A stretch of 64,000 nt of DNA from an uncultured Chloroflexia bacterium (GTDB lineage Bacteria; Chloroflexota; Anaerolineae; B4-G1; SLSP01). Of this stretch, positions 7,442 to 21,438 are shown one piece after another. The stretch lies in NCBI GenBank assembly GCA_963751345.1, contig CAVVUS010000018.1, forward strand, positions 32,001 through 96,000, given 5' to 3'. Position 1 is the first letter of the stretch. Each line of letters begins with the position of its first letter. Both the position numbers and the translations under genes were made by a program. The notes beneath the pieces were generated by a model. The model was not told where the DNA came from. It did not search any database and saw nothing but the letters and a program-made list of their open reading frames with translations.

Positions 7442-8518
7442 ATGCCAGCCGATCCGTCCGCGTTGACCATTTGGACCACCCAACCCGACAGCCCGCTAGC
7501 ACGTCATCTGCGGGAGATGGGCTTCACTGTCGGCGCCATCGAGGAGGATGAGGGCGACATCGATCGCTACATCCTTGGCCCACAACTCGCGGTCGAGCGT
7601 CGTACGGCCCGCACCTTCCTGTTGGGCATCCAGGACAAGACGCTCTTCACCTCTGCTATCTATCTCCGCGAGCACTTTGAGATCCCGATTCTCATCGTCG
7701 AGGGTAGTATCGACTACGGGACCACGGGGTTTCATCCCCAGGCCGTGCGTGGCGCGCTGTCGTCCATGATGCTTGAATATGGCGTGAGCGTCCTTTCCAC
7801 TCCGGACGAGGGGGAGACTGCTCAGCTTCTGGCGATGATGGCGCGCCATGCCCAGGCGGGTATTCCCGAGATCTCCCTGGTCCCCAAGCGCAAAGCCGTG
7901 ATCTTGCCCGATCTACAGCGGCGCGTGGTGGAGATGCTGCCGGGCTGCGGACGGGTGACTGCAAGGGATCTGCTGCAGCATTTCGGCAGTGTCGAGCGCA
8001 TCGTCTCCGCGGGGCAGACGGAGCTGCAGCACGTCCGCGGCATCGGTAGGACGCGCGCCGCCGAAATCCACCGCGTCTTGCACGCAGATTATGAGGCGGT
8101 CGATACCGAACAGAACCTGGAGGACGCCATCACGGCTTCGCCGGAACTCCTCTTCGATCATGACGTTGAGTTCTTGGCACGACAACACCTTTTCACGACG
8201 GCGGCAGGTGAGCGCAATATCGTCGATCTTGCGTTCTTCGATGTCGCACGCGCCACCGTCGTTTTGGTTGAACTCAAGAGGGGTGGGCTGAACGCGGATC
8301 ACGAGGCACAGCTTCGACGCTATCTTGAGACGGCGGATGAGTCCCCGCTCTTCCACAGCTATCTGGTTCAGGGTGCCGGGCTTCGCGGGATTCTGGCTAC
8401 CGTGGACCGATGTGATTTTACTGCCAGCATCTCCGGACGTCGAGGCTGTTATCGTGGACGAGGCTGCGGTACAATCGAGGTGATCAAGGCGCTACGCCAC
8501 AAGAGACTAGGAGGATAG
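7442..8518 (+). CDS. ERCC4/XPF-like domain + (HhH)2 + NucS-like PD-(D/E)xK nuclease fusion
   Basis: LAVERRT..LF..PILIVEG (ERCC4); LPGCG..ARDLLQHFGS..VRGIG (HhH2); EQNLED..PELL..RQ..IVDL..VELKRG..QLRRY (NucS-like); SD GAGGAGG. Confidence 0.8.
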   Translation: MPADPSALTIWTTQPDSPLARHLREMGFTVGAIEEDEGDIDRYILGPQLAVERRTARTFLLGIQDKTLFTSAIYLREHFEIPILIVEGSIDYGTTGFHPQAVRGALSSMMLEYGVSVLSTPDEGETAQLLAMMARHAQAGIPEISLVPKRKAVILPDLQRRVVEMLPGCGRVTARDLLQHFGSVERIVSAGQTELQHVRGIGRTRAAEIHRVLHADYEAVDTEQNLEDAITASPELLFDHDVEFLARQHLFTTAAGERNIVDLAFFDVARATVVLVELKRGGLNADHEAQLRRYLETADESPLFHSYLVQGAGLRGILATVDRCDFTASISGRRGCYRGRGCGTIEVIKALRHKRLGG

Positions 8519-8522
8519 AGAA

Positions 8523-9452
8523 ATGGAGAAGCTGAGCCGGGCAGCACAGGCCAGAGCGCGGGCATTTGTCTTCGAGTATGGGCGTCCGTTGGAGCGGGCC
8601 AGGTTTCTCTATGCCTTGGAGGGTGGCGACGCGCAGAAGCTGTGCTCGACGAACTGGCGTCCTTCCGAGAACGAGGACGGAGGGTTCGGCCACGGGTTGG
8701 AGTCCGACCTGAGGCTGCCCGACTCGTCGGTGTTGGCCACGACGGTGGGGTTGCAGATCGCTTCGTGAGGTCGGCGCCGGCGCGGATCATCCCTTGGTCG
8801 AGGGGGCCATGCGCTACTTGATGGCGACCTATGACTCCGACCACGAAGTCTGGCCTATGACCCCCCCCAACGTCGACGACGCGCCGCACGCCCCGTGGTG
8901 GCACTATGATGAGGACGTGGCGACCGGTGGGGTGGATTCCTGGCCAATCCCCGTGCGGAGATCGTGGGCTACCTGCACGACTACGCCGATCTGGTGCCGC
9001 CGCAGATGCGGGATCATCTGACGGACGCAGTCATAGAGCATCTCGGGGACCTTGGGACATCTGTCGAGATGCACGAGGCCCTTTGCTATGTGCGCCTCGC
9101 CGAGAGCGAGGGGCTGCCGGAGGCCGCGCGTTTGGAACTGCTGCGCCTGCTGGTGCCGGTGGTGGATGCGACGGTGGCCAAGGACCCGGGCGCGTGGGGT
9201 GGATATGGGCTTACACCGGTCGAGGTCGCCAGCGGTCCGGACTCGCCCTTTGCGGCCCTGTTGGCCGAGCCGCTGTCGGCCAACCTCGATTACGAGATCG
9301 CGCAGCATGCCGAGAGCGGTATCTGGGAGCCCAAGTGGACGTGGGGTGGCGCGTATCCGGAGGCTTGGGAGCAGGCGAGAGAGGACTGGTCCGGAGTCAT
9401 TACCGTTCGGATGTTGGCGACGCTCAAACGTTTCGGGCGCCTGGAAGGGTAG
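8523..9452 (+). CDS. Prenyltransferase/terpenoid-cyclase-fold (alpha/alpha barrel) protein, frameshifted
   Basis: GRPLERARF..NEDGGFGHGLESDLR, APHAPWW, WSGVIT; split over ORFs 8523-8768, 8794-9021 and 8964-9452. Confidence 0.65.
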
Positions 9453-10604
9453 GTGCGGCCGGTGGAGATCTCGATTGCGACGGCTCGTCGACTGGCGCTC
9501 TATTGCCAGGGGCTCAACGGTGCTTCCGAGGGCCCTGCAGATAGAGCCCATATTGCTCAAATCATCGAGCAACTGGGTTATGTGCAGATTGACACGATCC
9601 ACGTCATTCAGCGGGCGCACCATCACGTGCTCTGGAGCCGCTGTCCGGGCTATCATCCACAGATGCTCCACGAGCTTCTGGTCGAGGATCGCAGCGTCTT
9701 CGAGTGGTGGACCCACGCCGCATCTTACATCCCGATGACCGACTTCCGCTTCTACGTGCCTCGGATGCGGGATATGGCGGACTCAGCACGACAGAAGGCG
9801 TGGCACGACGAACACCGTGAGGTTGTGGACCACGTCATCGCGCGCATCCGCGAGGAGGGGGCACTGGGCGCGGCGGACTTCGAGGCGCCGGAGGATTTTC
9901 AGGGCGGCACGTGGTGGAATTGGAAACCGGCAAAGCGGGCGCTGGAGTTCCTCTTCAACGCCGGTGTGGTGACCGTATCCGAACGCCGGAACTTCCAGCG
10001 GCTCTACGATCTCCGGGAGCGAATCATACCTGAGGATGCGCATCTTCCCGAACCGGATCGCGCTGACCGGGATGAGTTCATCATCCGGCGGTCGGTTGGC
10101 AGTTTGGGCGTACTTCCCAGAAGGGAGATCCGTTGGTGGCGGGCGACTCGCCCTAGCGCGGAAGCTCTCGAACGGGAAATTGATGCCGGAAGGATCACGC
10201 TCGTTTCGCTCGAGGGTGATGGGGACGAGCCCTGGTACGCCTGGACGGCGGCACTCGAAGCCATCGACACCGATAGCCGCGAGCCTGTCGCGCTCCACAT
10301 TCTCTCTCCCTTCGACAACCTGATCATCCGACGCCAGTGGATGGAACGACTCTTTGGTTACGACTATCGACTGGAATGCTATGTGCCCAAAGCCAAGCGG
10401 CAATATGGTTACTTCGCGCTGCCGATTCTCTATGGCGATCGATTCATCGGGCGGATGGACACGAAGGCGGACCGCGCCACCCGCACCTTGATCGTGCGCC
10501 AGCTCACGTTCGAGGCTGATTTCGACCCCGACGAGCGCGTCCTGTCGCTTCTGGTGGAGAAGCTGCGGGCTTTTGGCGCGTTCAACGGCTGTGAGTGCCT
10601 TTGA
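9453..10604 (+). CDS. ycaQ: YcaQ/AlkZ-family (HTH_42) crosslink-repair DNA glycosylase; C-terminus may extend to 10684
   Basis: VQIDTI (QxD), FEWWTHAAS, FQRLYDL, LSPFDNL, YRLECYVPKAKRQYGYF. Confidence 0.9.
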   Translation: MRPVEISIATARRLALYCQGLNGASEGPADRAHIAQIIEQLGYVQIDTIHVIQRAHHHVLWSRCPGYHPQMLHELLVEDRSVFEWWTHAASYIPMTDFRFYVPRMRDMADSARQKAWHDEHREVVDHVIARIREEGALGAADFEAPEDFQGGTWWNWKPAKRALEFLFNAGVVTVSERRNFQRLYDLRERIIPEDAHLPEPDRADRDEFIIRRSVGSLGVLPRREIRWWRATRPSAEALEREIDAGRITLVSLEGDGDEPWYAWTAALEAIDTDSREPVALHILSPFDNLIIRRQWMERLFGYDYRLECYVPKAKRQYGYFALPILYGDRFIGRMDTKADRATRTLIVRQLTFEADFDPDERVLSLLVEKLRAFGAFNGCECL

Positions 10605-10731
10605 GCGTCGAACAGGTCACGCCGGAGCGTTTGAAGCGTCCTCTCTCCCTTGCGCTGGCCTCCCCGGAATATGCCGAGAACTGACATCAATCCCCGGTAA
10701 GCTTGGATCGTGTCATATCAAAGGAGGCGAC

Positions 10732-11509
10732 GTGTCATCAGTAGATCGATTCCTTGAGGGACGCGTGGCCCTGGTTACCGGGTCGACGGGTGGGGGCATG
10801 GGGCGGAGCATCGCCCTGACGCTGGCTGCTCACGGCGCCGACATCGTGCTCAACCACGGCACACATCGTTGCGATAGCGAAGCCGACGCTGCGGCAGAGG
10901 CGATTGTCCAGGCGATCTATGCTATGGGAAGTCGTGCGCGCTTCGTCAAGGCTGACACGCGCAAGGCCGGTGAGGTCGAGGAGATGGTCCGCCAGGCGCA
11001 GGAGACCTTTGGGCGTATCGATATCCTCGTCAACAACGCCGGTGGCGCGTGGCTGCCAGGTGATATTACCGATGCCGACCCGGAGGCGTTCCGTGATGTC
11101 ATCGAGGCCGAGGCATTTGGCGCCTTCCTGTGTACCCGCGCATGCCTGCCGCTCATGCGCCAACAAGCCTGGGGCCGGATTGTCAGTCTGGGTGCTTATG
11201 ATGCCGGGATCTGGGCCGATGGCCCGCTCTCCTACGCCATCGGCAAGGGCTCGCGCGCGCTCATGACGCGTCACCTCGCTCTGCAGGAGCGCAAACACAA
11301 CATCACGGTGAACTTGGTCAATCCCGGGCCGGGTCATACCTTCGCCTTTGGGAGCCTGGATGTGCGCCTTGAGCTATGCGCGGCACGAAGCCGCGTGGCA
11401 AGAGCGACAGAAGGCAACGCCGCAGGATATCGCCGATGCCGTGCTCTTCCTCTGCCGCGAGGAGGCACGTTTCATCACCGGAAGCCACCTCGCCTTCTCC
11501 ATCGACTGA
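10732..11509 (+). CDS. SDR family oxidoreductase (frameshift near 11360-11390)
   Basis: TGSTGGGMG, DILVNNAG, YAIGK; C-terminus PQDIADAVLFL..FITG in another frame; SD AAGGAGG. Confidence 0.85.
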
Positions 11510-11638
11510 GGTTGCCCTCCGATCTTTCCCGAAGTTCCGGTTGCGGTTGCGGTATAATGCACCGGATCGAGGAAAGTTAGGCGGAAGGCCGAACGTTTTC
11601 TATGATGATGGCGTGACACCGCAAGGGGCAAACTACCT

Positions 11639-12853
11639 TTGGATGAGGATACGAAGCAACTGATCGAGGCGTCGCTTCTTGACGAGGAGACGCTGGTCAA
11701 GGCGACGTTCAGCGGACGCCGTCGGGGATACGAATTGCCTTGGCGGCGGGTAATCGTCCGTCCGGTGTTGATTCGAGACGACCGCTACCTGCAGATCTCG
11801 TACTTCGATGAGAAGCATGACATTACCAAGAACTACGTCGGACAGGATGCGCGCGACAAGGTGCATGAGTTGCTGGAGTTGCCCTTCAGCCAGATTCACG
11901 TCATGACCACCGAAGGCGAGATCCAGGTGCAGATCTCGCGGAAGGGCGTGGCCCGTGTCTCTCAACACAGGTCCTCGAAGGCCGCACCTGCTCTGGCCCA
12001 CGATCGTGAAAAGGCCTATCTTCTCCCTGGCACCGAGCCGGACGCCTTCCTGCAGGCCAAAGGCATCCAGACACCTGACGGTCGGATCCGGGCCAGCAAG
12101 CAGCGTAAGTTCCGGCAGATCAACGAGTTCCTGCGGCTCATTGCCGAGACCGAAATGTTGGACAAGCTGGTCCCCGCGGACGAGCCCAGACCCATCCGGA
12201 TCGTGGATTGCGGCTGCGGCAGTGCGGACCTGACCTTCGCCACTTACCATTATCTCAGTCACATCTACAACCATCCCGCCAAGGCTGTGGGCATCGACGT
12301 CAAGGCGGATCTGGTGGCCAAGCAGAATGCGATTGCGGCGGACTTGGGTTGGACAGACTTACGTTTCGAGGTCAGTCGCATTATCGACTACCAGCCGGTT
12401 GAAACCCCTGACATCGTCCTTGCTCTTCACGCGTGTGACACGGCGACGGACGAAGCGCTGGCACAGGCCGTGAAATGGGGCGCCAGGATGATCTTCAGCG
12501 CGCCGTGCTGCCACCACAACCTGCAGGCGCAGATGGCGGAGCAGGAGATGCCGCCGGTTTTCCAACCGGTGCTGCGGCACGGCATCCTCAGAGAGCGTGT
12601 GGGCGACGTTCTCACAGACAGCTTTCGCGCCCAGATCCTGCGTATCTTTGGTTACGCGACCGATGTCGTGCAGTTCATCTCCCCTGAGCACACCGCCAAG
12701 AACCTGATGATCCGGGGCATCAAGACGACGACACCCGGCGATCCTCAGATGATCGCGGAATACCGGGCATTGGTGGATTTCTGGCAGGTTCGTCCCTATC
12801 TGGCGCAGCTTCTCGACAAGCAGCTTTCAGTGTTTGCGGATGCTGTCGCCTGA
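11639..12853 (+). CDS. Class I SAM-dependent methyltransferase (Methyltransf_32-like)
   Basis: KFRQINEFL, IVDCGCGSADLTF, ALHACDTATD, PCCHH, EHTAKNLMI. Confidence 0.88.
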   Translation: MDEDTKQLIEASLLDEETLVKATFSGRRRGYELPWRRVIVRPVLIRDDRYLQISYFDEKHDITKNYVGQDARDKVHELLELPFSQIHVMTTEGEIQVQISRKGVARVSQHRSSKAAPALAHDREKAYLLPGTEPDAFLQAKGIQTPDGRIRASKQRKFRQINEFLRLIAETEMLDKLVPADEPRPIRIVDCGCGSADLTFATYHYLSHIYNHPAKAVGIDVKADLVAKQNAIAADLGWTDLRFEVSRIIDYQPVETPDIVLALHACDTATDEALAQAVKWGARMIFSAPCCHHNLQAQMAEQEMPPVFQPVLRHGILRERVGDVLTDSFRAQILRIFGYATDVVQFISPEHTAKNLMIRGIKTTTPGDPQMIAEYRALVDFWQVRPYLAQLLDKQLSVFADAVA

Positions 12854-13688
12854 GTCGACGCGCCTTCGACGGCTGCCGCGGATGGCCCTGGGATGCGGGG
12901 TCGTCGCGCTTCTCCTGGGATTGGGGGCTGTCGACGCGTTCCTCATCGAGCCTCACTGGCTCCAGGTGAACAGGCTGACCCTAGCCTCGGACAAGATCGC
13001 GCAGCCGGTCCGCATCGTAGTGTTGGCGGACGTGCAGACCGATCGCCCCGGCCCCTACGAAGCGCGCGTCTTCGAGACGGCGATGGCGCAATCGCCGGAT
13101 CTGATTCTCTTTGCCGGGGACTACGTACAGCTCGGGCGACGCAGTGGCAGCTATGAGACCGAGATTGAGGCGTTGAACGAGGTGATCCGCGCCGCAGGTC
13201 TCTCCGCGCCGCTGGGTATCTACGCGATCGCCGGGAACGTCGATCGGCCCGACGTATGGGCCCGAGTCTTTGACGGCCTCCCCGTGGTGACGATCGACGA
13301 CACAACCCGGTACGAAGTCGGACCTTTGGTACTGACAGGACTGGGTATGCAGGATTCGTTCCGACAGGATATTGTGGTGGAGCCCGAGGACGGCTTTCAC
13401 ATCGTGTTGGGCCACAGCCCCAACTTCAGCCTTGGCGCCATCGAGGGCGACCTGTTGATCGCGGGACATACGCACGGCGGTCAGGTACAGCTCCCATTGA
13501 TCGGGCCCCTGCTGACACTTTCCGCCGTGCCCCGGAGTTGGGCCTCCGGTGTGACGATGATCGCGCCCGGCAAGACGCTCGTCGTCTCCCGTGGTATCGG
13601 GATGGAGCGGGGTATCGCGCCCCGCATCCGGTTTCTCTGCCGTCCGGAGTTGGTGGTGATCGATCTGGTGCCGGAAAATGAACAATAG
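12834..13688 (+). CDS. Membrane-anchored metallophosphoesterase (YkuE-like)
   Basis: AGDYV, GNVD, GHSP, AGHTHGGQV, SRGIG, RFLCRPE. Confidence 0.85.
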   Translation: MRMLSPESTRLRRLPRMALGCGVVALLLGLGAVDAFLIEPHWLQVNRLTLASDKIAQPVRIVVLADVQTDRPGPYEARVFETAMAQSPDLILFAGDYVQLGRRSGSYETEIEALNEVIRAAGLSAPLGIYAIAGNVDRPDVWARVFDGLPVVTIDDTTRYEVGPLVLTGLGMQDSFRQDIVVEPEDGFHIVLGHSPNFSLGAIEGDLLIAGHTHGGQVQLPLIGPLLTLSAVPRSWASGVTMIAPGKTLVVSRGIGMERGIAPRIRFLCRPELVVIDLVPENEQ

Positions 13689-13835
13689 AGAATGGAGGAA
13701 TGCAGAATGAAGGAATAGGGAATCGGAGAATGGAGCAGATAGCAGCCGCGGCTGGTTAAGTCACTCGTGGCAGACAACGTCGTCATTCTCATTCTTCTTC
13801 TATTCTCATTCTCTATTCTTGATTCTGTATTGCCT
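13689..13835. repeat. Degenerate GAAT-rich tract followed by a complementary ATTC-rich tract
   Basis: GAGAATGGAGGAATGCAGAATGAAGGAATAGGGAAT ... CATTCTCATTCTTCTTCTATTCTCATTCTCTATTCTTGATTCT. Confidence 0.75.
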
Positions 13836-13849
13836 CTTGGAGCTGCACA

Positions 13850-16800
13850 TTGCGTATCACTATTCAGGGCGCCAACGAGCACAACCTGAAGGACGTCGAC
13901 GTCGAGATCGGCGACGGGCTGACGGTCGTCACCGGAGTCTCGGGCTCCGGCAAGACGTCGCTCGTCTTCGATACCCTCTACCACGAGGCACGTCGCCGGT
14001 TCCTGGAGGTCTTCTCGCTGGGCGAACGCCTCTCTCCGGCGGACGTGCGGGTGATCACCGGTCTGGGACCGGCGGTTGCCGTGGGCCAGAACCTCCTGAA
14101 TCGCAACCCAGGGTCCACGTTGGCGACGGCCTCAGGACTACATCCGTTTCTGCGGCTGCTCTACGCTCACTTCGGGGAGCGCGCCTGCGCGCAGTGTGGG
14201 GCACCCATCTCGGTTCATACGAATGATGAGATTATCGAGCGGCTGGCCTTCCTGGCCGAGACGGCGCCGCTCATGGTTATCGCGCCCATCGTGCGCCAGG
14301 CAGTCGGCAGCCATCGAACGTTGCTGGCGCTCCTGATCGAGGCCTTTGGTGCGAGTGCCGTGATCCTCGACGGCGCTGTGGCGACCCAGGCTCAGGTGGC
14401 GGCGCTCGATGCGACACAACTGCACGACATCGACATTGTGGTTGCCGAGCTACCCACCGCGGCGGGGACAGGCGAGATCCGCGATGCCCTGGAGCGCGTC
14501 TGGGCATTCGGGGCCAGCGCCGTAGCGGTGCGCCAGGGAGACCGGGTGACGACTCTATCCCGTGCGCCTGTCTGCTCACAGTGCGGTGCATGGTTCGGCG
14601 ATCTGTCTCCGGTGCGCTTTCACCAGCCCTGTCCTCACTGTGACGGCGCCGGCTGCGACCGCTGCGACCACACCGGCATGCATCCCGAGGCAGCCGCGGT
14701 CCGGTGGCAGGGCCTACGCCTTCCGGATCTGCTGGCTCTTCCGGTGACAGAGGTGCGCGGGCGTTTCGCCGAGGCCGAGCTTCCGTCGACGTCGGAACGC
14801 CTTGAGGCTGAGATCACGCGGCGTCTTGATGCCTTGGAGCGCGTCGGACTCGGCTACATTGCGCTAGATCGTTCTTCGCCCACGCTCTCCCGCGGGGAGT
14901 CTCAGCGGGTGCGGCTGGCTGTTGCGCTGACCAGCCGCCTCGAGGATATCGTCCACGTACTCGATGAGCCGACGATCGGGCAGCATCCTGCCGACGTCGC
15001 GCGGCTTCTACCCGCTTTCCGCGAACTGGGCGGCCCCGTGATCTACGTCGAGCATGATCGCGTCGCGGCGGCGGCGGCCGATCACGCGCTTGATCTGGGT
15101 CCAGGTGCAGGTCGTGCCGGCGGGACAGTCACGTTCGATGGTACGCCCGCCGGGCTCTGGCAGATGGATACGCCCACCGGTCGCTATTTCAGCCTCCGGG
15201 AGCGGGTGATGATTCCCGATCGCCGCCCTGAGCCGGAGGAGTTCCTGACTCTGCGAGGGGCCAACCTGCGCAACCTGCGGAGCATCGATGTCCCTATCCC
15301 TATGGGCCGGTTGACGGTTGTCACGGGCGTCTCGGGCTCGGGCAAGAGCACTTTCGTCGAGGATGTCCTCGCGGCTTCGCTCTCCGGTAGTGCCCCGGTG
15401 GGGTGCATTACCGTTGACGGGCCTCCGCTCAAAGCAGTGATGGTCGATCAGAGCCCGATTGGGCGGAACCCCCGGTCGAACCCGGCGACCTATACCAAGC
15501 TCTCCGACATCGTGCGCGACGGCTTCGCGGCGGCTACGGACCTCTCGCCGTCTCATTTCTCGTTCAATCGCCCCGAGGGTGCGTGCCCGGCCTGCAAGGG
15601 CATCGGCGCCGTCGAGGTCGCGATGCGCTATCTTCCCTCGACGTGGATCCCGTGCGCTGAATGTGAGGGCCACCGGTTCAGTGACGAAGTCCTGGCTGCG
15701 ACGGTCCCCTTCGGGGATGAAGCTCTATCCATCGCTGACTTCTACGAGCTCACCATTGCCGAGGTCGTGCCGCTACTCCGGTCGTCTCCGTATCTCTCCG
15801 AGCAGCAGAAACGGGCCGCCGGGCACATCCTGCACGCGCTTCGCGATATCGGCCTTGGCTATCTGCAACTGGGACAGCCGTCACCAACCCTGTCTGGCGG
15901 CGAAGCTCAGCGCGTCAAGTTGGCAAAGTACCTTGGACGGCCCAGGCTCCGGGGGCAGATGCTCATCCTGGACGAGCCCTCGACCGGCCTGCACCCCAAG
16001 GACATCTCCGGTCTTCTCAAGGTGTTGGATCGCCTGGTGCGGCGTGGTGCCTCGGTTGTGGTGGTCGAGCACAACACCGATATCATCCGTGCAGCTGATT
16101 GGGTCATCGATCTCGGTCCGGGTGCCGGGCCCAGGGGCGGCGACCTCGTCTATGCAGGTCCGCCCGATGGGCTGCTGCGGACAGCCGGCTCGGCCACCGG
16201 CCAGGCGCTGCGCGATGAGGCCCTGGTCACTCCGCGGGGTTCCCCGACCTCGCCCGGCACAGATGCAGTGGAAGAGCAATCTGCCGGTACGGTGGTTGGG
16301 GCCATTCGTATCCGCGGCGCAAAGGCCAACAATCTCAAAGACGTGAGTGTGGACTTCCCCAAGGGGCAGCTCACGGTCGTCACCGGTGTCTCCGGCTCGG
16401 GCAAGTCGAGCCTGGTGGGTGACGTACTCGAGTCCGAGGCGCGGCGTCGTTTCCTGGAGACCCTGTCGATGTACGAGCGCCAGGGCACGCGTGAGGGCCC
16501 AGAGGCCGACGCCGAGGCGATCACGGGCCTGGGTGTAGCCATCACCGTGGGCGGAGGGGGACGGGGACGCTTCGGGCGACGGAACACCGTGGGAACGGCG
16601 ACGGAACTCTCGCATCACCTGGCCATTCTTCTTTCGTGGCTCGGTGAACGTGACTGTCCGAACTGCGGCACCTCACTCCAGCGGATCTCGCCAAGCCGCC
16701 ACGTGGCAGGCCTGCGGCGCGGCGGCACCTGGCAGTGCCCAACGTGCGGGAGTCTCTATCCCATCGCGGCCCCGCGGCACTTCTCCCCGTCCGTCTACGC

Positions 16801-18806
16801 TGCAGCATGCACGACCTGTCACGGGGTGGGCACGCTGCGTGAGCCGAACCCCGACAAGCTGATTGTGCATCCTGAGTTGCCGCTGTGCAGCGGCGCAATG
16901 TACTCCCCGGGGTTTTTCCCCAAAGGCTATCTCTGCAAGCCGATGAATGGCGGATATGAGGTCGTTCAAGCGTTGGCCAAGGTGTTGGGTTTTGATCCTG
17001 CCACCACGCCCTGGAACGAGATGACGCGCGAGGCACAGCACGCGTTCCTCTTCGGTTATCCGGAGCCGCTGGAGGTCATCCACGAGAGCCGTAACGGCAC
17101 CACGAGCGTACATCGCCAACATCATCCTGGTTTCTACGGGTGGATACGTGACTGGGACGTCGGCGGTACCTATACCGATACCAAGGTGTGCCCGGCGTGT
17201 GGGGGCGTGCGGCTGCGCGCCGAATACGCGTCGGTTAGGGTTGCAGGCGAGACCTTCCATACGCTGAGCGAGATGACGTTGTCCAGGTTGGCCGATGTGC
17301 TGGACAAGGTGGAGACATCGTCTGTCACCGAACGTGACGGAACGCAGGTCGCCAGCACCGTCGCTGCCAGTCTCGATGCAGCGCGGAGACGGGTGCACTT
17401 CCTTTGCCAGGTCGGGTTGGGCTACCTTCACCTCAACCGCGACGCAGCGACGCTCTCCGCGGGTGAGGCGCAACGTGTCAAGCTGGCCGGCTTGCTGGGC
17501 AGCGGGCTGACTTCCTTGACAGTCCTCGTTGACGAGCCGACACGGGGTATGCATCCTTCCGAGGTCGAGGCGATGATCGGTGCCCTGATCAGCCTCCGCG
17601 CTGAGGGCAACACGGTGGTCGCGGTTGAACACGATCCGGACGTGATGCGCTCGGCCGATTACCTGGTGGATATGGGCCCTGGCGCAGGCGCGGCGGGAGG
17701 CATGGTGGTGGCAGCGGGCACCTTCGAGGAGGTGGTGCGATCAGAGACTCTCACTGCCCGTTGGCTCAGCGGCGCGCGTAGACTCGATCTGACGCAGCCT
17801 CGGCGCGAACCCAAGCAGTGGATGGTGATTCGAGGGGCCAGGGCGCACAACCTCAGAGGCGAGGATGTGCGTCTGCCGAAGGGTGTCCTCGTGGGGATCT
17901 GCGGGGTCTCCGGGTCCGGCAAGAGCACGCTCTTGATCGACACACTGGGCCGCGCCCTGGCGCCAAAGAAGCAGACGACATCCGTGGCCTATGAGCCCGT
18001 GGATCCAGGCGAGCACGATGCAATCGAGGGCTCCCCCCGGCGTGTCCTCCTGGTGGATCAGGTCAAGGCCGGGGTTACGAGTCCTGCTGACTTCCTGGGA
18101 TTGACAAAGCCCGTTCACGCCATCTACGCTGAAAGTGAGGACGCCCATATCTTGGGGCTGGATGCGAAGGCGTTGGGCCAGCGCTGCTCCGCCTGCGGTG
18201 GGCGCGGGACGGAGACCCTCGACATGGGATTTCTGCCTAACGTGTACGTGACGTGTGAGACTTGCCAGGGGACGGGCTATCGGCCCGAGGCGTGGGACGT
18301 GAGGTTGCACGGCGTGGCGCTGCCCGAGATCTTCGGCAGGACGATCGATGAGGTTGTTGAGTTGCTCCGGGACGATATCGACGCCGGTTCGAGCCTTGCT
18401 CGCAAGCTGGAGGCTGTCCGCGACGTGGGATTGGGATACCTGGTGCTCCGTCAGCCCGGCTATTCGCTCTCCGGAGGTGAGGCACAGCGACTGAAGATCG
18501 CGGATGAGCTCTGCAGGCAGAGTCGTTCTGAGACGCTCTACATTCTTGACGAACCCACGGTGGGCCAGCATCTGGAGGACGTCGCGCGCCTTGGCGGCGT
18601 GCTGCGCCGGCTGGTTGCCGAGGGCAACTCCGTCTTCGTCGTGGAGCATCACACGCATCCTCCTGGCGACGTGCGACTGGCTGGTGGAGCTGGGGCCCGG
18701 CGGTGGTCCCGATGGCGGTCGCGTCATCGCCCAGGGCACCCCTGAGGCCGTAGCGGCGGGTGACACGCCGACGGCGCGATACCTGCGGCGGGTGCTGGAG
18801 CGATGA
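13850..18806 (+). CDS. uvrA: Tandem-duplicated UvrA-like protein with four ABC ATPase modules (frameshift near 18655)
   Basis: Four GVSGSGK[ST] Walker A motifs, four LSxGExQR..DEP motifs, many CxxC Zn fingers; true C-terminus in ORF 18504-18806. Confidence 0.88.
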
Positions 18807-18977
18807 AGCGAGTGAGCGAGAAAGCGAAGGGGCGAATGCAGAATACAGAATGGGAGAATGTAAGCATGCAGAGCGGCCAATTCGAGATCGGACGCGTTTT
18901 CTCGCCTCTTCATCGTCTCGCTCACTCGCCTTTTCGCTTATTCTCCGATTCTTTAATTCTCTGATTCTTAGATTCTG
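18807..18977. repeat. Degenerate GCGA/GAAT tract and complementary TCGC/ATTCT tract
   Basis: GCGAGTGAGCGAGAAAGCGAAGGGGCGAATGCAGAAT ... TCGCTCACTCGCC...GATTCTTTAATTCTCTGATTCTTAGATTCTG. Confidence 0.75.
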
Positions 18978-20000
18978 ATGCTACCTCTCCTTCTTGCCGA
19001 TCGATCGCCTTGCTTGCGCTGGCTGGTGTTGACCGAGCTCCTGGGCAGGGCCGAGGACGACCCGGAGGTCCAGGAGCTTGCGGCGCTACGCGAGCGTGAC
19101 CCGTTGGTGGCACCGCTTCTGGCTGCTCAGGGGGCGGATGGTTCGTGGCGTCGAGGGGACCTGGCGTGGCGGGGCGATGCCCAGCGGATGACCATGCTGG
19201 CCTTGATGCGTCTCGGTTACCTGGGATTTGGCCCCGAGACGCCTACCGTGGCGCGCGGTGCAGCCTATCTCTTCTCGCTCCAGCGAGAGGATGGTGCCTG
19301 GGATCTCCCCCGGAGCCACGAGGGGACGGAGGAGAACGAGGGCTATTCGATGATGCCGCTTCAGACGGCGTTGCCCCTGCGGGCGCTGGCGATGTGTGGC
19401 TACGCCACGGATCCTCGCGCGGAGCGCGCCTACGGGTGGCTGCTTGCCCAGCGGCTGGAGGATGGCGCCTGGCCCACCGGCATCGCCGGGGGCGGCACCC
19501 GCGGCTACGTGGCAGGTTATCGGAGGCTGCCTCACTCGCGGTGGGGCTGTCGTTCCAACACCACGGGTGCGCTGCTGGCTCTGGCTCATCACCCTGAACG
19601 ACGTTCCGGACCAGAAGCGCGACGCGCGTTGGACCTCCTGCTGGGGCGCGAGACGCGGGAAACGGGCACGCTCGGCTTCGAGGTCGCGCGCCTGATTGGC
19701 GCTGAGCCGGCCCGCGGCTTCATTACCTTCTACGGGCGCTTCGACCTTTCCCAGGTCCTGCACCTGTGCCGATGCATCGGCGCTACGCAGGACGACCCGC
19801 GCGTCGCCGGCATTGTCACCTTCGTGCGTGATCTGCAGGGCCCCTACGGCCTGTGGGACGTCACGCCGCCTCAGGCCTCCCGCTGGGTCACCTTCGATCT
19901 GCTGCGCTCGCTCTCGCATCTGGATGCGGAAGGGGACTGGGTCAGCCGCGAGCCCCGCACACCCTTCCAGACCTATCCGAAACGACAGAGGCGGTACTAG
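18978..20000 (+). CDS. Prenyltransferase/squalene-cyclase repeat (QW motif) protein
   Basis: QGADGSW, QREDGAW, QRLEDGAW, QGPYGLW repeats. Confidence 0.75.
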   Translation: MLPLLLADRSPCLRWLVLTELLGRAEDDPEVQELAALRERDPLVAPLLAAQGADGSWRRGDLAWRGDAQRMTMLALMRLGYLGFGPETPTVARGAAYLFSLQREDGAWDLPRSHEGTEENEGYSMMPLQTALPLRALAMCGYATDPRAERAYGWLLAQRLEDGAWPTGIAGGGTRGYVAGYRRLPHSRWGCRSNTTGALLALAHHPERRSGPEARRALDLLLGRETRETGTLGFEVARLIGAEPARGFITFYGRFDLSQVLHLCRCIGATQDDPRVAGIVTFVRDLQGPYGLWDVTPPQASRWVTFDLLRSLSHLDAEGDWVSREPRTPFQTYPKRQRRY

Positions 20001-21367
20001 AGGAAAGCCGTCTGCTTCCTCCCAGGATCAGCTCGAGCAGCGGCACGAAGTCGGCGACGCGCTTGGCACGGATGACCAGATCCCACAGCGGCTCGAACTT
20101 CTTCCACCCGCCCGTGTAGGCGAGGTGGCGCAGCCGGGCAAGAGGCTGCTGCTTGGTTCCGGCGGCCTCCAGAATGTTGGGCCAACTGTAGAAGTCGTGG
20201 TAGGCCTGCCAATAGCCGGCCTCCAGTGCCTCCGCCGTCATCCTCGCCGGGCGGAAGACGGCGTGTCGGGTGTCGTAGAGGTCCCAATCCTCCGTCGTGA
20301 TGCGACCCTCTGCCGCCATTCTTCTGTGGAGCGCCGTGCCGGGGTAGGGCGTGAGGATGTGAAAGGTCGCCGTCTCGATCCCCTGCGCTACGGCCCAGCT
20401 TACCGTACGGTCGAAGACGCTGTCGTCGTCTTCGTCCATCCCGAAGACGAAGCTGCCGTTGATCATCACGCCCAGATCGTGAAGCTTGCGGATCGCAAGG
20501 TCGTAGTCGCGCTGAAGGTTGTGGAGCTTGTGCTGTGCCTTCAGGTTGGCCTGATTGAGGGTCTCGAAGCCAATGAAAAGGCTGCGCAGGCCGCACGCAA
20601 CGGCCTGTTCGATCAAGCCCGGTGTGAGCACGGCCTGCACCGTGCCGGCTGCTTGCCACAGACGACCCATCCCGCGCATACCCGTCGAACAGCGACCCTG
20701 CAAAGTGAGGGTTCCCAAAGAGGTTGTCGTCGAGGAAGAAGAGGTGGCGTCCGGGCAGCCTCTCGATCTCGGCGAGGGCCTCGTCCACAGGTTGGGTGTA
20801 GAAGGATTTGCCGCCCTCGAAGAAGGCTTCTTTGTAGCAGAAATCGCAGGCGTGCGGGCAGCCGCGCGAGACCACGATGCTGTTGGGCACCAGGTAGAGG
20901 CGGCGCCGGATCAGGTCGCGGCGTGGGCTGGGCGCGCCGGTCAGGCAGCGTTGGGTCGAGCGATAGATCGAGTGAGGGCTCCCGGCGCGGAAATCCGTGA
21001 GAAACAAAGGCCACGTGTCCTCGCCTGGGCCCAGGAAAATCGTGTCAGCGTGCTGGGCGGCCTCCTGCGGCAGTGCCGTGACGTGCAAGCCCCCGAGGGC
21101 AACGTGGGCACCCCGGCGGCGGTAGTGATCGGCAAGCTCGTAGGCGCGGTGAGCCGAGGTGATGTAGACCTCAATCGCGACAAGGTCCGGGGTGTCCTCC
21201 AGGTCGAGCGTCTGGACGTGCTCGTCTTCCAGCGTCACCTCATCGTCATCGCTGAGGTAGCCCGCCAGCGTCGCCAGACCCAGGGGAGGGAAGAGCGAGT
21301 ACTTGATGGGTCGCCAATATGGGCTCTTGGCCTCGGTCAGCGCAGGTAGGATCATCTTGACTTTCAT
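19942..21367 (-). CDS. B12-binding radical SAM protein (frameshift near 20680)
   Basis: PPLGLATLAGY, GGLHVT, SRGCPHACDFC, IGFETL, TPYPGT. Confidence 0.88.
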
Positions 21368-21438
21368 GAGCCCCATCTTAGCAGAGTTGACGTGCCTCAG
21401 TCCACGTCCCGCGCCCACGCATTGGCGCACTCAGGTGC

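Follow-up and report, generated by a model that had tools for sequence, protein, structure and literature searches.

Class I UvrA proteins carry both of their accessory domains, the UvrB-binding domain and the insertion domain, on the stem of the first nucleotide-binding domain (NBD-I), together with two zinc modules (PMC3167621). According to a cryo-electron microscopy study of the Mycobacterium tuberculosis UvrA2UvrB1-DNA complex from 2025, the insertion domain of a protomer leaves the DNA when UvrB sits on this protomer; the two contacts are sterically exclusive on one protomer, and each UvrB is in contact with one protomer's UvrB-binding domain and with the second signature region (SIG-II) of the other (PMC11985968). 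Class IIa UvrAs have neither the UvrB-binding domain nor the first zinc module and work without other repair proteins, as described in the Ecm16 paper (PMC9328131), and fused UvrAs are known in Planctomycetes (PMC8567305, Fig. 13). Here, we describe a gene of a soil bacterium, an uncultured member of the Chloroflexia, which joins two dissimilar UvrA copies in a single chain. It is located in a stretch of 64,000 nucleotides (nt) of contig CAVVUS010000018.1 (positions 32,001 to 96,000), called the window in the following; coordinates refer to this window unless another contig is named. Together with a downstream gene for an alpha/alpha-toroid protein, the fused uvrA forms a conserved two-gene module at 13850-20000.

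As assembled, the fused uvrA is an open frame of 1631 codons on the + strand (13850-18745), and its TTG start agrees with the N-termini of the relatives. The full product comprises approximately 1650 amino acids (aa) when read through a frame break to position 18806. An earlier note on this DNA, made from the sequence alone, had given the gene span as 13850..18806; its start stands, but its end does not apply to the gene as assembled, where the frame stops at 18745, and is reached only after a shift by one base. The following features were assigned:

13850..16219, + strand: half 1 with NBD-I and NBD-II, a UvrB-binding-type domain and no insertion domain (aa 1-790; TIGR00630, Walker A at aa 29 and 493, alignment)

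14198..14572, + strand: UvrB-binding-type domain between C113/C116 and C242/C245 (aa 117-241; PF17760)

14630..14665, + strand: zinc module 2 of half 1, from which the insertion domain has been lost (two CxxC pairs, 4 residues apart; aa 261-272; alignment)

14885-14908, + strand: region of the SIG-I (first signature) motif LSRGE of half 1 (aa 346-353)

16220..16303, + strand: variable in-frame linker between the halves with many Pro, Ser and Thr residues (aa 791-818)

16304..18659, + strand: half 2 with NBD-III and NBD-IV, an insertion domain and no UvrB-binding domain (aa 819-1603; TIGR00630, Walker A at aa 846 and 1352)

16655..16747, + strand: zinc module 1 of half 2 with a 23-residue loop in the place of the UvrB-binding domain (C936..C966; alignment)

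16820..17188, + strand: insertion domain of half 2 between C987/C990 and C1114/C1117 (aa 991-1113; PF17755)

17453-17476, + strand: region of the SIG-I motif LSAGE of half 2 (aa 1202-1209)

18656..18660, + strand: frame break with one extra base, most simply the A at 18657 (frame comparison, short-read contigs)

18660..18806, + strand: conserved C-terminal 48 residues of NBD-IV in the +1 frame, stop at 18804-18806 (translation; C-termini of the relatives P0003 and P0004; TIGR00630 positions 895-924)

Four Walker A motifs (aa 29, 493, 846 and 1352) bear out the four ATPase modules seen earlier, and both halves lie in one reading frame with no stop codon between them. The Pfam model UvrA_inter (PF17760) matches solely at aa 124-228 (E-value 7.4e-10, 39.1 bits, cut-off 23.3) and UvrA_DNA-bind (PF17755) solely at aa 1001-1099 (E-value 3.7e-6, 27.6 bits, cut-off 23.2), which places each accessory domain in one half only and not in both. 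In a six-frame scan, half 1 matches TIGR00630 at positions 1-284 and 406-921 and thus skips the insertion domain, while half 2 matches it at positions 2-134 and 252-890 and skips the UvrB-binding domain. An alignment to the canonical UvrA of the same genome gives a consistent picture: only 4 residues separate the CxxC pairs of zinc module 2 in half 1 (C261..C272), and 23 residues separate those of zinc module 1 in half 2 (C936..C966), with all three zinc modules retained in each half. The earlier note had proposed exactly this arrangement, a UvrB-binding insert without an insertion domain in half 1 and an insertion-domain-like segment without a UvrB-binding insert in half 2, so that a single frame encodes one partner-binding-type domain and one insertion domain; all of this is confirmed, and the layout proved invariant across the family. 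The signature motifs are LSRGE (SIG-I) and LSGGE (SIG-II) in half 1 and LSAGE and LSGGE in half 2. The two SIG-I motifs LSRGE and LSAGE presumably belong to the distal ATP sites, judged by UvrA site geometry, and the distal sites of the fused UvrA may differ in behaviour from the proximal ones. In the alignment, SIG-II of half 2 is devoid of the canonical stretches DQSPIGR.PRSNPATY and FSFN..GG. The UvrB-binding-type domain of half 1, called the docking domain below, reads QAVGSH where canonical UvrA has an RGRKGE-type stretch. It aligns over its full length with solved class I UvrAs (9gxk residues 129-303, E-value 3e-14) and weakly with 3fpn and 4dfc.

The conservation of this architecture was assessed in 120 proteins listed by a protein search with the fused UvrA. 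All but one of them (119/120) are 1611-1764 aa long and 61-77% identical at 97-98% query coverage; where named, they mostly stem from Anaerolineae or Chloroflexi metagenome bins, and they are annotated only as "ATP-binding cassette domain-containing protein" or "excinuclease ABC subunit A". Features were counted in the 117 proteins which are full length and match the Walker A pattern four times, excluding the shortened P0009 as well as P0050 and P0109 with three pattern matches each. The reciprocal layout of the accessory domains is kept in 117/117. Half 1 has a stub of 4 residues at the insertion-domain site in 113 proteins, of 9 in three and of 15 in one; at the UvrB-binding-domain site of half 2 there are 11-40 residues in 115 proteins, the other two being without a countable fourth CxxC. 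The retained domains measure 120-159 residues in half 1 (116/117) and 120-139 residues in half 2 (115/115). The signature motifs of modules 1 to 4 are conserved as LSRGE (110/117), LSGGE (116/117), LSAGE (102/117) and LSGGE (112/117), respectively; Walker B (DEP) is present in 116-117 and the H-loop in 108-117 of the 117 proteins, depending on the site. The insertion domain of half 2 shows a mean column identity of 0.79 with invariant aromatic and Gly motifs, the docking domain of half 1 the lowest value of the family's domains (0.58), and the linker between the halves 0.21.

When half 1 alone was searched against proteins of 440-1400 aa, the best 120 hits were fragments of the fused family only, and 25 of these carry archaeal names (23 Asgard lineages, 2 Bathyarchaeia). 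A locus search with the fused protein listed 80 loci, of which four belong to the family and the remainder are canonical uvrA genes, and a double UvrA was present in 5 of the 121 genomes of a sample of the class. The fused family is common in Anaerolineae metagenomes and, considering also the archaeal names, is therefore not the curiosity of one genome. One locus, L012 (JBNGCX010000116.1, 3788 bases), consists entirely of a 71%-identical piece of the Chloroflexota/Asgard-type fused uvrA and is filed under a Paracoccaceae bin; it is probably mis-binned.

To which described UvrA type does the protein belong? With class I UvrA (2r6f/3uwx, 3pih, 3zqj, 9gxk, 9ga2-5) both halves share the double-NBD core and three zinc modules. 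Composite ABC domains with Walker A, signature, Walker B and H-loop, a class I feature, are present as four modules, and the accessory domains of half 1 and half 2 are homologous to the UvrB-binding and the insertion domain, respectively. All best matches in the PDB (Protein Data Bank) are class I structures (half 1, 541-525 bits; half 2, 508-481 bits), whereas class II structures (2vf7, 7sh1) score 400-418 bits (half 2, 414 and 404 bits). However, class I UvrA consists of two identical chains of approximately 940 aa instead of one chain of approximately 1650 aa and has both accessory domains in every unit, while half 1 and half 2 are each without one of them. Further differences are the SIG-I motifs LSRGE and LSAGE in place of LSGGE, the SIG-II of half 2 without its canonical stretches, and the pairing with a toroid gene. 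Neither half reaches the class I family cut-offs: TIGR00630 gives 651.8 and 585.7 bits for half 1 and half 2 (cut-off 729.8) and NF001503 659.5 and 580.7 bits (cut-off 1147), so that the whole fusion passes such cut-offs only through the sum of both halves.

Like class II UvrA (Deinococcus radiodurans UvrA2 2vf7, Ecm16 7sh1, DrrC), half 2 has an insertion domain and no UvrB-binding domain, but class II proteins are single units. Class II is also characterized by the loss of zinc module 1, of which half 2 keeps both CxxC pairs, as do 115/117 relatives; class IIa UvrAs (PMC9328131) and an aligned Deinococcus plasmid copy are without these cysteines. Half 1, in turn, does not fit class II due to its UvrB-binding-type domain. 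Chlamydia-type proteins (NF001885/PRK00635) and the fusions of Planctomycetes are head-to-tail double UvrAs as well, but are approximately 1800-2300 aa long, and the excerpted description compared here mentions neither reciprocal domain loss nor a toroid partner (PMC8567305). The Chlamydia-type model of 1809 positions, NF001885, gives 767 bits against a cut-off of 3054. Hence, the comparisons with Chlamydia-type fusions and with class II proteins such as DrrC, which the earlier note had drawn, do not hold in the sense of membership: the former falls short in score, and for the latter half 2 keeps the zinc-module-1 cysteines and does not group with the sampled class II clade in a tree with a weak backbone.

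The latter result stems from a phylogeny of the halves, an analysis which the earlier note had suggested. The tree was calculated from 60 rows and 661 shared columns using IQ-TREE (LG+G4, quick mode) with SH-aLRT (Shimodaira-Hasegawa-like approximate likelihood ratio test) support. It comprised 17 half-1 sequences, 17 half-2 sequences, 21 canonical UvrAs including both of the host, with some canonical uvrA genes of the locus search serving as outgroups, and five plasmid-borne single UvrAs without a UvrB-binding domain. These five were selected from 914 matching plasmid records because their match spans 99% of half 2 in one piece, and the label "class II" for these rows is based on length and gaps. 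Half-1, half-2 and canonical sequences form one clade each (SH-aLRT 100, 100 and 99). Of the five plasmid rows of class II type, four make up a clade of their own (SH-aLRT 100) apart from half 2, and the fifth (L110) has a long branch and no assigned place. Given the weakly supported backbone between the groups (54, 80), half 1 and half 2 may or may not be sister lineages. The stems of the half-1 and half-2 clades are long (1.05 and 0.86 changes per column) and the branching orders within the two clades agree, which indicates that the fusion and the reciprocal losses are older than the spread of the family. As judged from these sequences, the halves are old, separate UvrA lineages.

The second gene of the module follows downstream of the fused uvrA:

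18978..20000, + strand: partner gene for a 340-aa alpha/alpha-toroid protein, SQHop_cyclase_C-like (PF13243; fold model; synteny)

The partner matches PF13243 with an E-value of 8e-9 (35.4 bits, cut-off 26.1), and its fold model is an alpha/alpha toroid with a predicted local distance difference test (pLDDT) value of 77.3 and a predicted template modelling (pTM) score of 0.81. The best Foldseek hits are drimenyl diphosphate synthase, squalene-hopene cyclase and complement C3d-type domains (E-value approx. 1e-6, template modelling (TM) score 0.4-0.5); for 8zg0 and 3sqc the E-value is 1.4e-6 at a low TM score of 0.37-0.43. A profile of the partner family matches squalene-hopene cyclase with an E-value of 4e-13 over 97 residues. 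Class II terpene cyclases have a catalytic DxDD acid motif and two domains with approximately 500-630 aa. The partner shares with squalene-hopene cyclase and the class II terpene cyclases the alpha/alpha-barrel fold and QW-type repeats (Q...G.W), of which it has three, but it is a single domain of 340 aa, and no DxDD motif was found in the partner of the window or in 36 of the 38 members of its family. From its sequence, the toroid partner thus looks non-catalytic. The partner family is compact, with 77 representatives (50% clustering) at an E-value of ≤1e-30, many of them fragments, and all source names read "hypothetical protein".

According to tblastn, the partner lies directly downstream of the double uvrA in all five loci which reach that far (L011, L014, L115, L116, L117); three further loci end at a contig end before the partner position. 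An ortholog-level partner (E-value ≤1e-137) occurs in 4 of the 121 class genomes, each time beside a double uvrA, and in the fifth genome with a double uvrA the locus is cut by a contig end. The other 116 genomes contain distant toroid paralogues only, or none. The layout of the fused UvrA and its conservation are shown by these data, as are the adjacency of the two genes and their joint occurrence.

A complex of the fused UvrA (aa 100-270, alignment of 36 rows) and the partner (alignment of 38 rows) was predicted with an own alignment for each protein. The toroid docks on the UvrB-binding-like domain of half 1 with a median ipSAE (interaction prediction score from aligned errors) of 0.76 (runs 0.77, 0.75 and 0.76), whereas the controls reached 0.17 at best of 3. 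Of 157 solved complexes, 116 attained that mark, as did 2 of 215 mismatched pairs; this calibration is only rough for predictions with own alignments. At least 94% of the contacts are common to the runs, and the pLDDT of the partner is at least 81. On the UvrA side, contacts are made by aa 147-158, 161-162, 165, 188-189, 194, 218-221, 239, 241, 246 and 248, including G153, S154, H155 and L158, which are invariant in the family; on the partner side, the N-terminal helices (aa 2-40) and aa 289-299 are involved. The UvrA contacts are somewhat more conserved than the remainder of aa 100-270 (mean 0.76 versus 0.62, Mann-Whitney p 0.011), and positions of at least 90% conservation make up 11/26 contacts versus 33/145 other positions (Fisher p 0.05). 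According to this model, the toroid protein is a likely ligand of the docking domain of half 1, in place of or beside UvrB.

The host genome (5.40 Mb, 49 contigs, 93% complete, 5.6% contamination) was searched for a canonical uvrA, as the earlier note had advised, and two full-length genes were found, on C30 (L001, 272178-275021, 1400 bits) and on C47 (L002, 67658-70453, 1356 bits). There is also one uvrB and one uvrC. The earlier note correctly stated that uvrB and uvrC are missing from the window: uvrB is located on another contig, and uvrC approximately 24 kb past the end of the window on the same contig. It was also right about the missing LexA box directly upstream, as GAACN4GTTC has no match in the window (0.6 expected by chance). 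Since the genome encodes two canonical UvrAs, UvrB and UvrC, the module adds to excision repair and does not replace it. The other four carriers in the class sample all have uvrB (4/4). In the tree, the canonical uvrA of C30 groups with canonical UvrAs of the same class and the copy of C47 does not; the guanine-cytosine (GC) content of C47 is 0.647, compared with 0.628 for the genome. Due to its tree placement, the GC content and the estimated contamination of 5.6%, the copy on C47 may be foreign or mis-binned.

Is the fused gene intact? In the assembled frame, VVEHHTH is followed by 28 unrelated residues and the stop at 18745, where the relatives read HHTLLLAACDW at the break site. The conserved C-terminus resumes one base out of frame (+1) and continues to 18806; TIGR00630 positions 895-924 are matched in the shifted frame, and the shifted tail matches the C-termini of P0003 and P0004. 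Four public sequencing runs were compared over 18300-19100; no RNA run was among those listed for this DNA. All three short-read contigs which span the site (151 nt, from runs X6, X2 and X3 of three studies; near relatives) are without one base, at 18657 or 18659, and each has 4-5 further letter differences from the window. The gene is also broken elsewhere in two long-contig assemblies: in P0009 (98% identical, 1.69-Mb contig) it ends at about aa 1155, and in L011 (1.14-Mb contig) the frame of the fused uvrA (L011:10001-14972) changes at about aa 950. In three short-read assemblies of relatives the gene is intact (1615, 1657 and 1634 aa). This pattern, with breaks at other places in two long-contig assemblies and none in three short-read assemblies, suggests that the breaks in L011 and P0009 are indel errors in the long-read consensus of a GC-rich group. 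In L011, the neighbouring response-regulator and B12-binding genes are likewise split into two tblastn pieces each.

We consider it probable that the extra base at about 18657 is an error of the assembly consensus, since 3/3 spanning contigs of the relatives are without it. Alternatively, a real, very recent mutation at about 18657 may have removed the last approximately 48 residues of NBD-IV, leaving a true pseudogene in a module which is decaying in this organism, its partner uncoupled by a hairpin between the two genes. The break is, after all, present in the assembly and lies outside any homopolymer, the best-matching run X1 (0.20 of the sampled words) does not extend over the site, so that no read of a likely source sample contradicts the break, and a loss could be tolerated given the full UvrABC set of the genome. 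The hairpin belongs to a spacer which the nearest relative does not have:

18807..18977, + strand: spacer of 171 nt whose inverted repeat, long and imperfect, is predicted to form a hairpin (−58.1 kcal/mol)

In that relative, L011, the partner starts at or just before the uvrA stop without any spacer, while L117 has a spacer of approximately 215 nt. Elsewhere in the genome, only two short partial copies of the element were found (C18:101050-101093 and C34:86713-86766), and record 13 of X6, a contig of a relative, contains part of it with a 7-nt insertion at 18846. No match to a sigma-70-type promoter or an intrinsic terminator was found at 13400-14000 or 18700-20200. Against a pseudogene speak the spanning contigs without the extra base, an out-of-frame tail conserved about as well as the remainder of the protein, the lack of a second lesion in 4.9 kb besides the break at about 18657, and the different break points in the two long-contig assemblies with none in the three short-read ones. 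Decay is a doubtful explanation, although it is the rival reading to be taken most seriously.

Further genes surround the module. A run upstream at 7442-13688 comprises, besides a short-chain dehydrogenase gene, the following:

7442-8518: ERCC4-type nuclease (ERCC4 and helix-hairpin-helix, HhH), upstream of the module

9453-10604: AlkZ-like DNA glycosylase (PF06224, E-value 3e-67), upstream of the module

11639-12853: methyltransferase (Methyltransf_32), upstream of the module

12834-13688: metallophosphoesterase, upstream of the module

The AlkZ family is linked to the repair of interstrand crosslinks and to self-resistance. The gene order upstream is kept in L011 (76-84% identity) and L013 (57-66%), and the phosphoesterase is also found in L014. 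The run is not near the module in L115 and L116, and the nuclease, glycosylase, methyltransferase and phosphoesterase were consequently rejected as a general part of the module; they represent local synteny. On the other side, a gene for a B12-binding-domain protein (19997-21430, − strand) converges on the partner, with a 4-base overlap between its end and the partner's stop; L011 has this gene in synteny.

Taking the evidence together, we read the locus as a two-gene module in which a lopsided UvrA pseudo-dimer with a toroid ligand serves as an extra sensor of damage or adducts beside UvrABC, and we give this reading slightly better than even chances. In this reading, the fold as a pseudo-dimer, the binding of the toroid and an output in repair are all inferred. 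The chain would fold back on itself like a UvrA2 dimer, but be permanently asymmetric, with half 1 as the partner-docking unit and half 2 as the DNA-holding unit; such an intramolecular pseudo-dimer is plausible given the variable linker of 28 residues. The single insertion domain would sense distorted DNA, and the chain would present this DNA to the toroid protein. The docking site would be completed by SIG-II of the opposite unit, half 2, and it is this SIG-II which is remodelled. By analogy, the fused protein would resemble a UvrA2-UvrB1-DNA intermediate made permanent. The M. tuberculosis complex has the same split, with one unit docking the partner and the insertion domain of the other holding the DNA; its asymmetry, however, is transient and induced by UvrB, while that of the fused UvrA is encoded in the gene, and the predicted ligand is the toroid (PMC11985968).

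Several observations weigh against this reading. The hairpin spacer of 171 nt parts the two genes here, while they abut or overlap in four relatives. The contacts on the partner side are no more conserved than the remainder of the partner (11/21 versus 147/319, p 0.65), and among the domains of the protein, the docking domain has the lowest conservation (0.58). The docking score is the model's own confidence, with the rough calibration given above, and the contigs without the extra base belong to relatives diverged by 3-4%, not to the source organism. Finally, uvrB is found above the family cut-off in all five carrier genomes examined, and UvrB is therefore still a possible ligand.

In line with this last point, the fused UvrA might be an alternative damage sensor of the ordinary UvrABC system, in which half 1 recruits one UvrB and a stoichiometry of the A2B1 type is built in, the toroid being an accessory or an unrelated neighbour. 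Homology between the docking domain and the UvrB-binding domain of class I extends along its whole length, both halves score 481-541 bits against class I and only 400-418 bits against class II structures, uvrB accompanies the gene in 5/5 carriers, and the published A2B1 intermediate shows the same asymmetry (PMC11985968). Nevertheless, the strict pairing with the toroid gene and the docking model speak for a different ligand, the sequence of the docking domain is diverged (QAVGSH for the canonical RGRKGE-type stretch), and the SIG-II needed to complete a UvrB site is remodelled; we regard this reading as rather unlikely. A more radical form of the pseudo-dimer reading, which we regard as unlikely too and as somewhat harder to sustain, is a self-contained surveillance system. 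Here, the toroid would take the seat of UvrB, the unusually conserved and aromatic-rich insertion domain of half 2 would flip out a damaged base, adduct or bound drug, and the cavity of the toroid would capture or verify it; if true, the sensing of damage could lead to its processing without UvrB or UvrC. Least probable is a UvrB-independent protection against DNA-binding small molecules or crosslinks by ATP-driven clearing of drugs from DNA, functionally like the class II proteins DrrC and Ecm16: class IIa UvrAs do act without other repair proteins (PMC9328131), a nuclease of the ERCC4 type and an AlkZ-like glycosylase lie just upstream in the window and two relatives, and the toroid fold type typically binds hydrophobic ligands, but half 2 does not group with the sampled class II clade in the tree with its weak backbone and keeps zinc module 1, no biosynthetic gene cluster was found among the neighbours scanned, and the ERCC4/AlkZ synteny is absent in 2/2 more distant loci with upstream DNA.

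Fused UvrAs and class II UvrAs as such are already known. No study of a fused UvrA with reciprocal losses or of a UvrA-toroid pair was found in a literature search that did not extend to the class scheme of Marszalkowska (2013). As far as this search shows, the combination of reciprocal domain losses and an obligatory toroid gene is new; the window adds the presence of the module beside a full UvrABC set in a bacterium, the probable frame break of the assembly and the inserted hairpin spacer. How a symmetric UvrA dimer picks one strand and passes the lesion to a single UvrB is still debated, according to the introduction of PMC11985968. A natural UvrA with a fixed asymmetry, having one docking domain, one insertion domain and four ATP sites which can be distinguished by their sequence, is a ready tool for this question of strand choice and hand-off. 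Moreover, the obligatory pairing with a toroid protein hints at an output different from UvrB, which, if true, would represent a new branch of prokaryotic excision repair.

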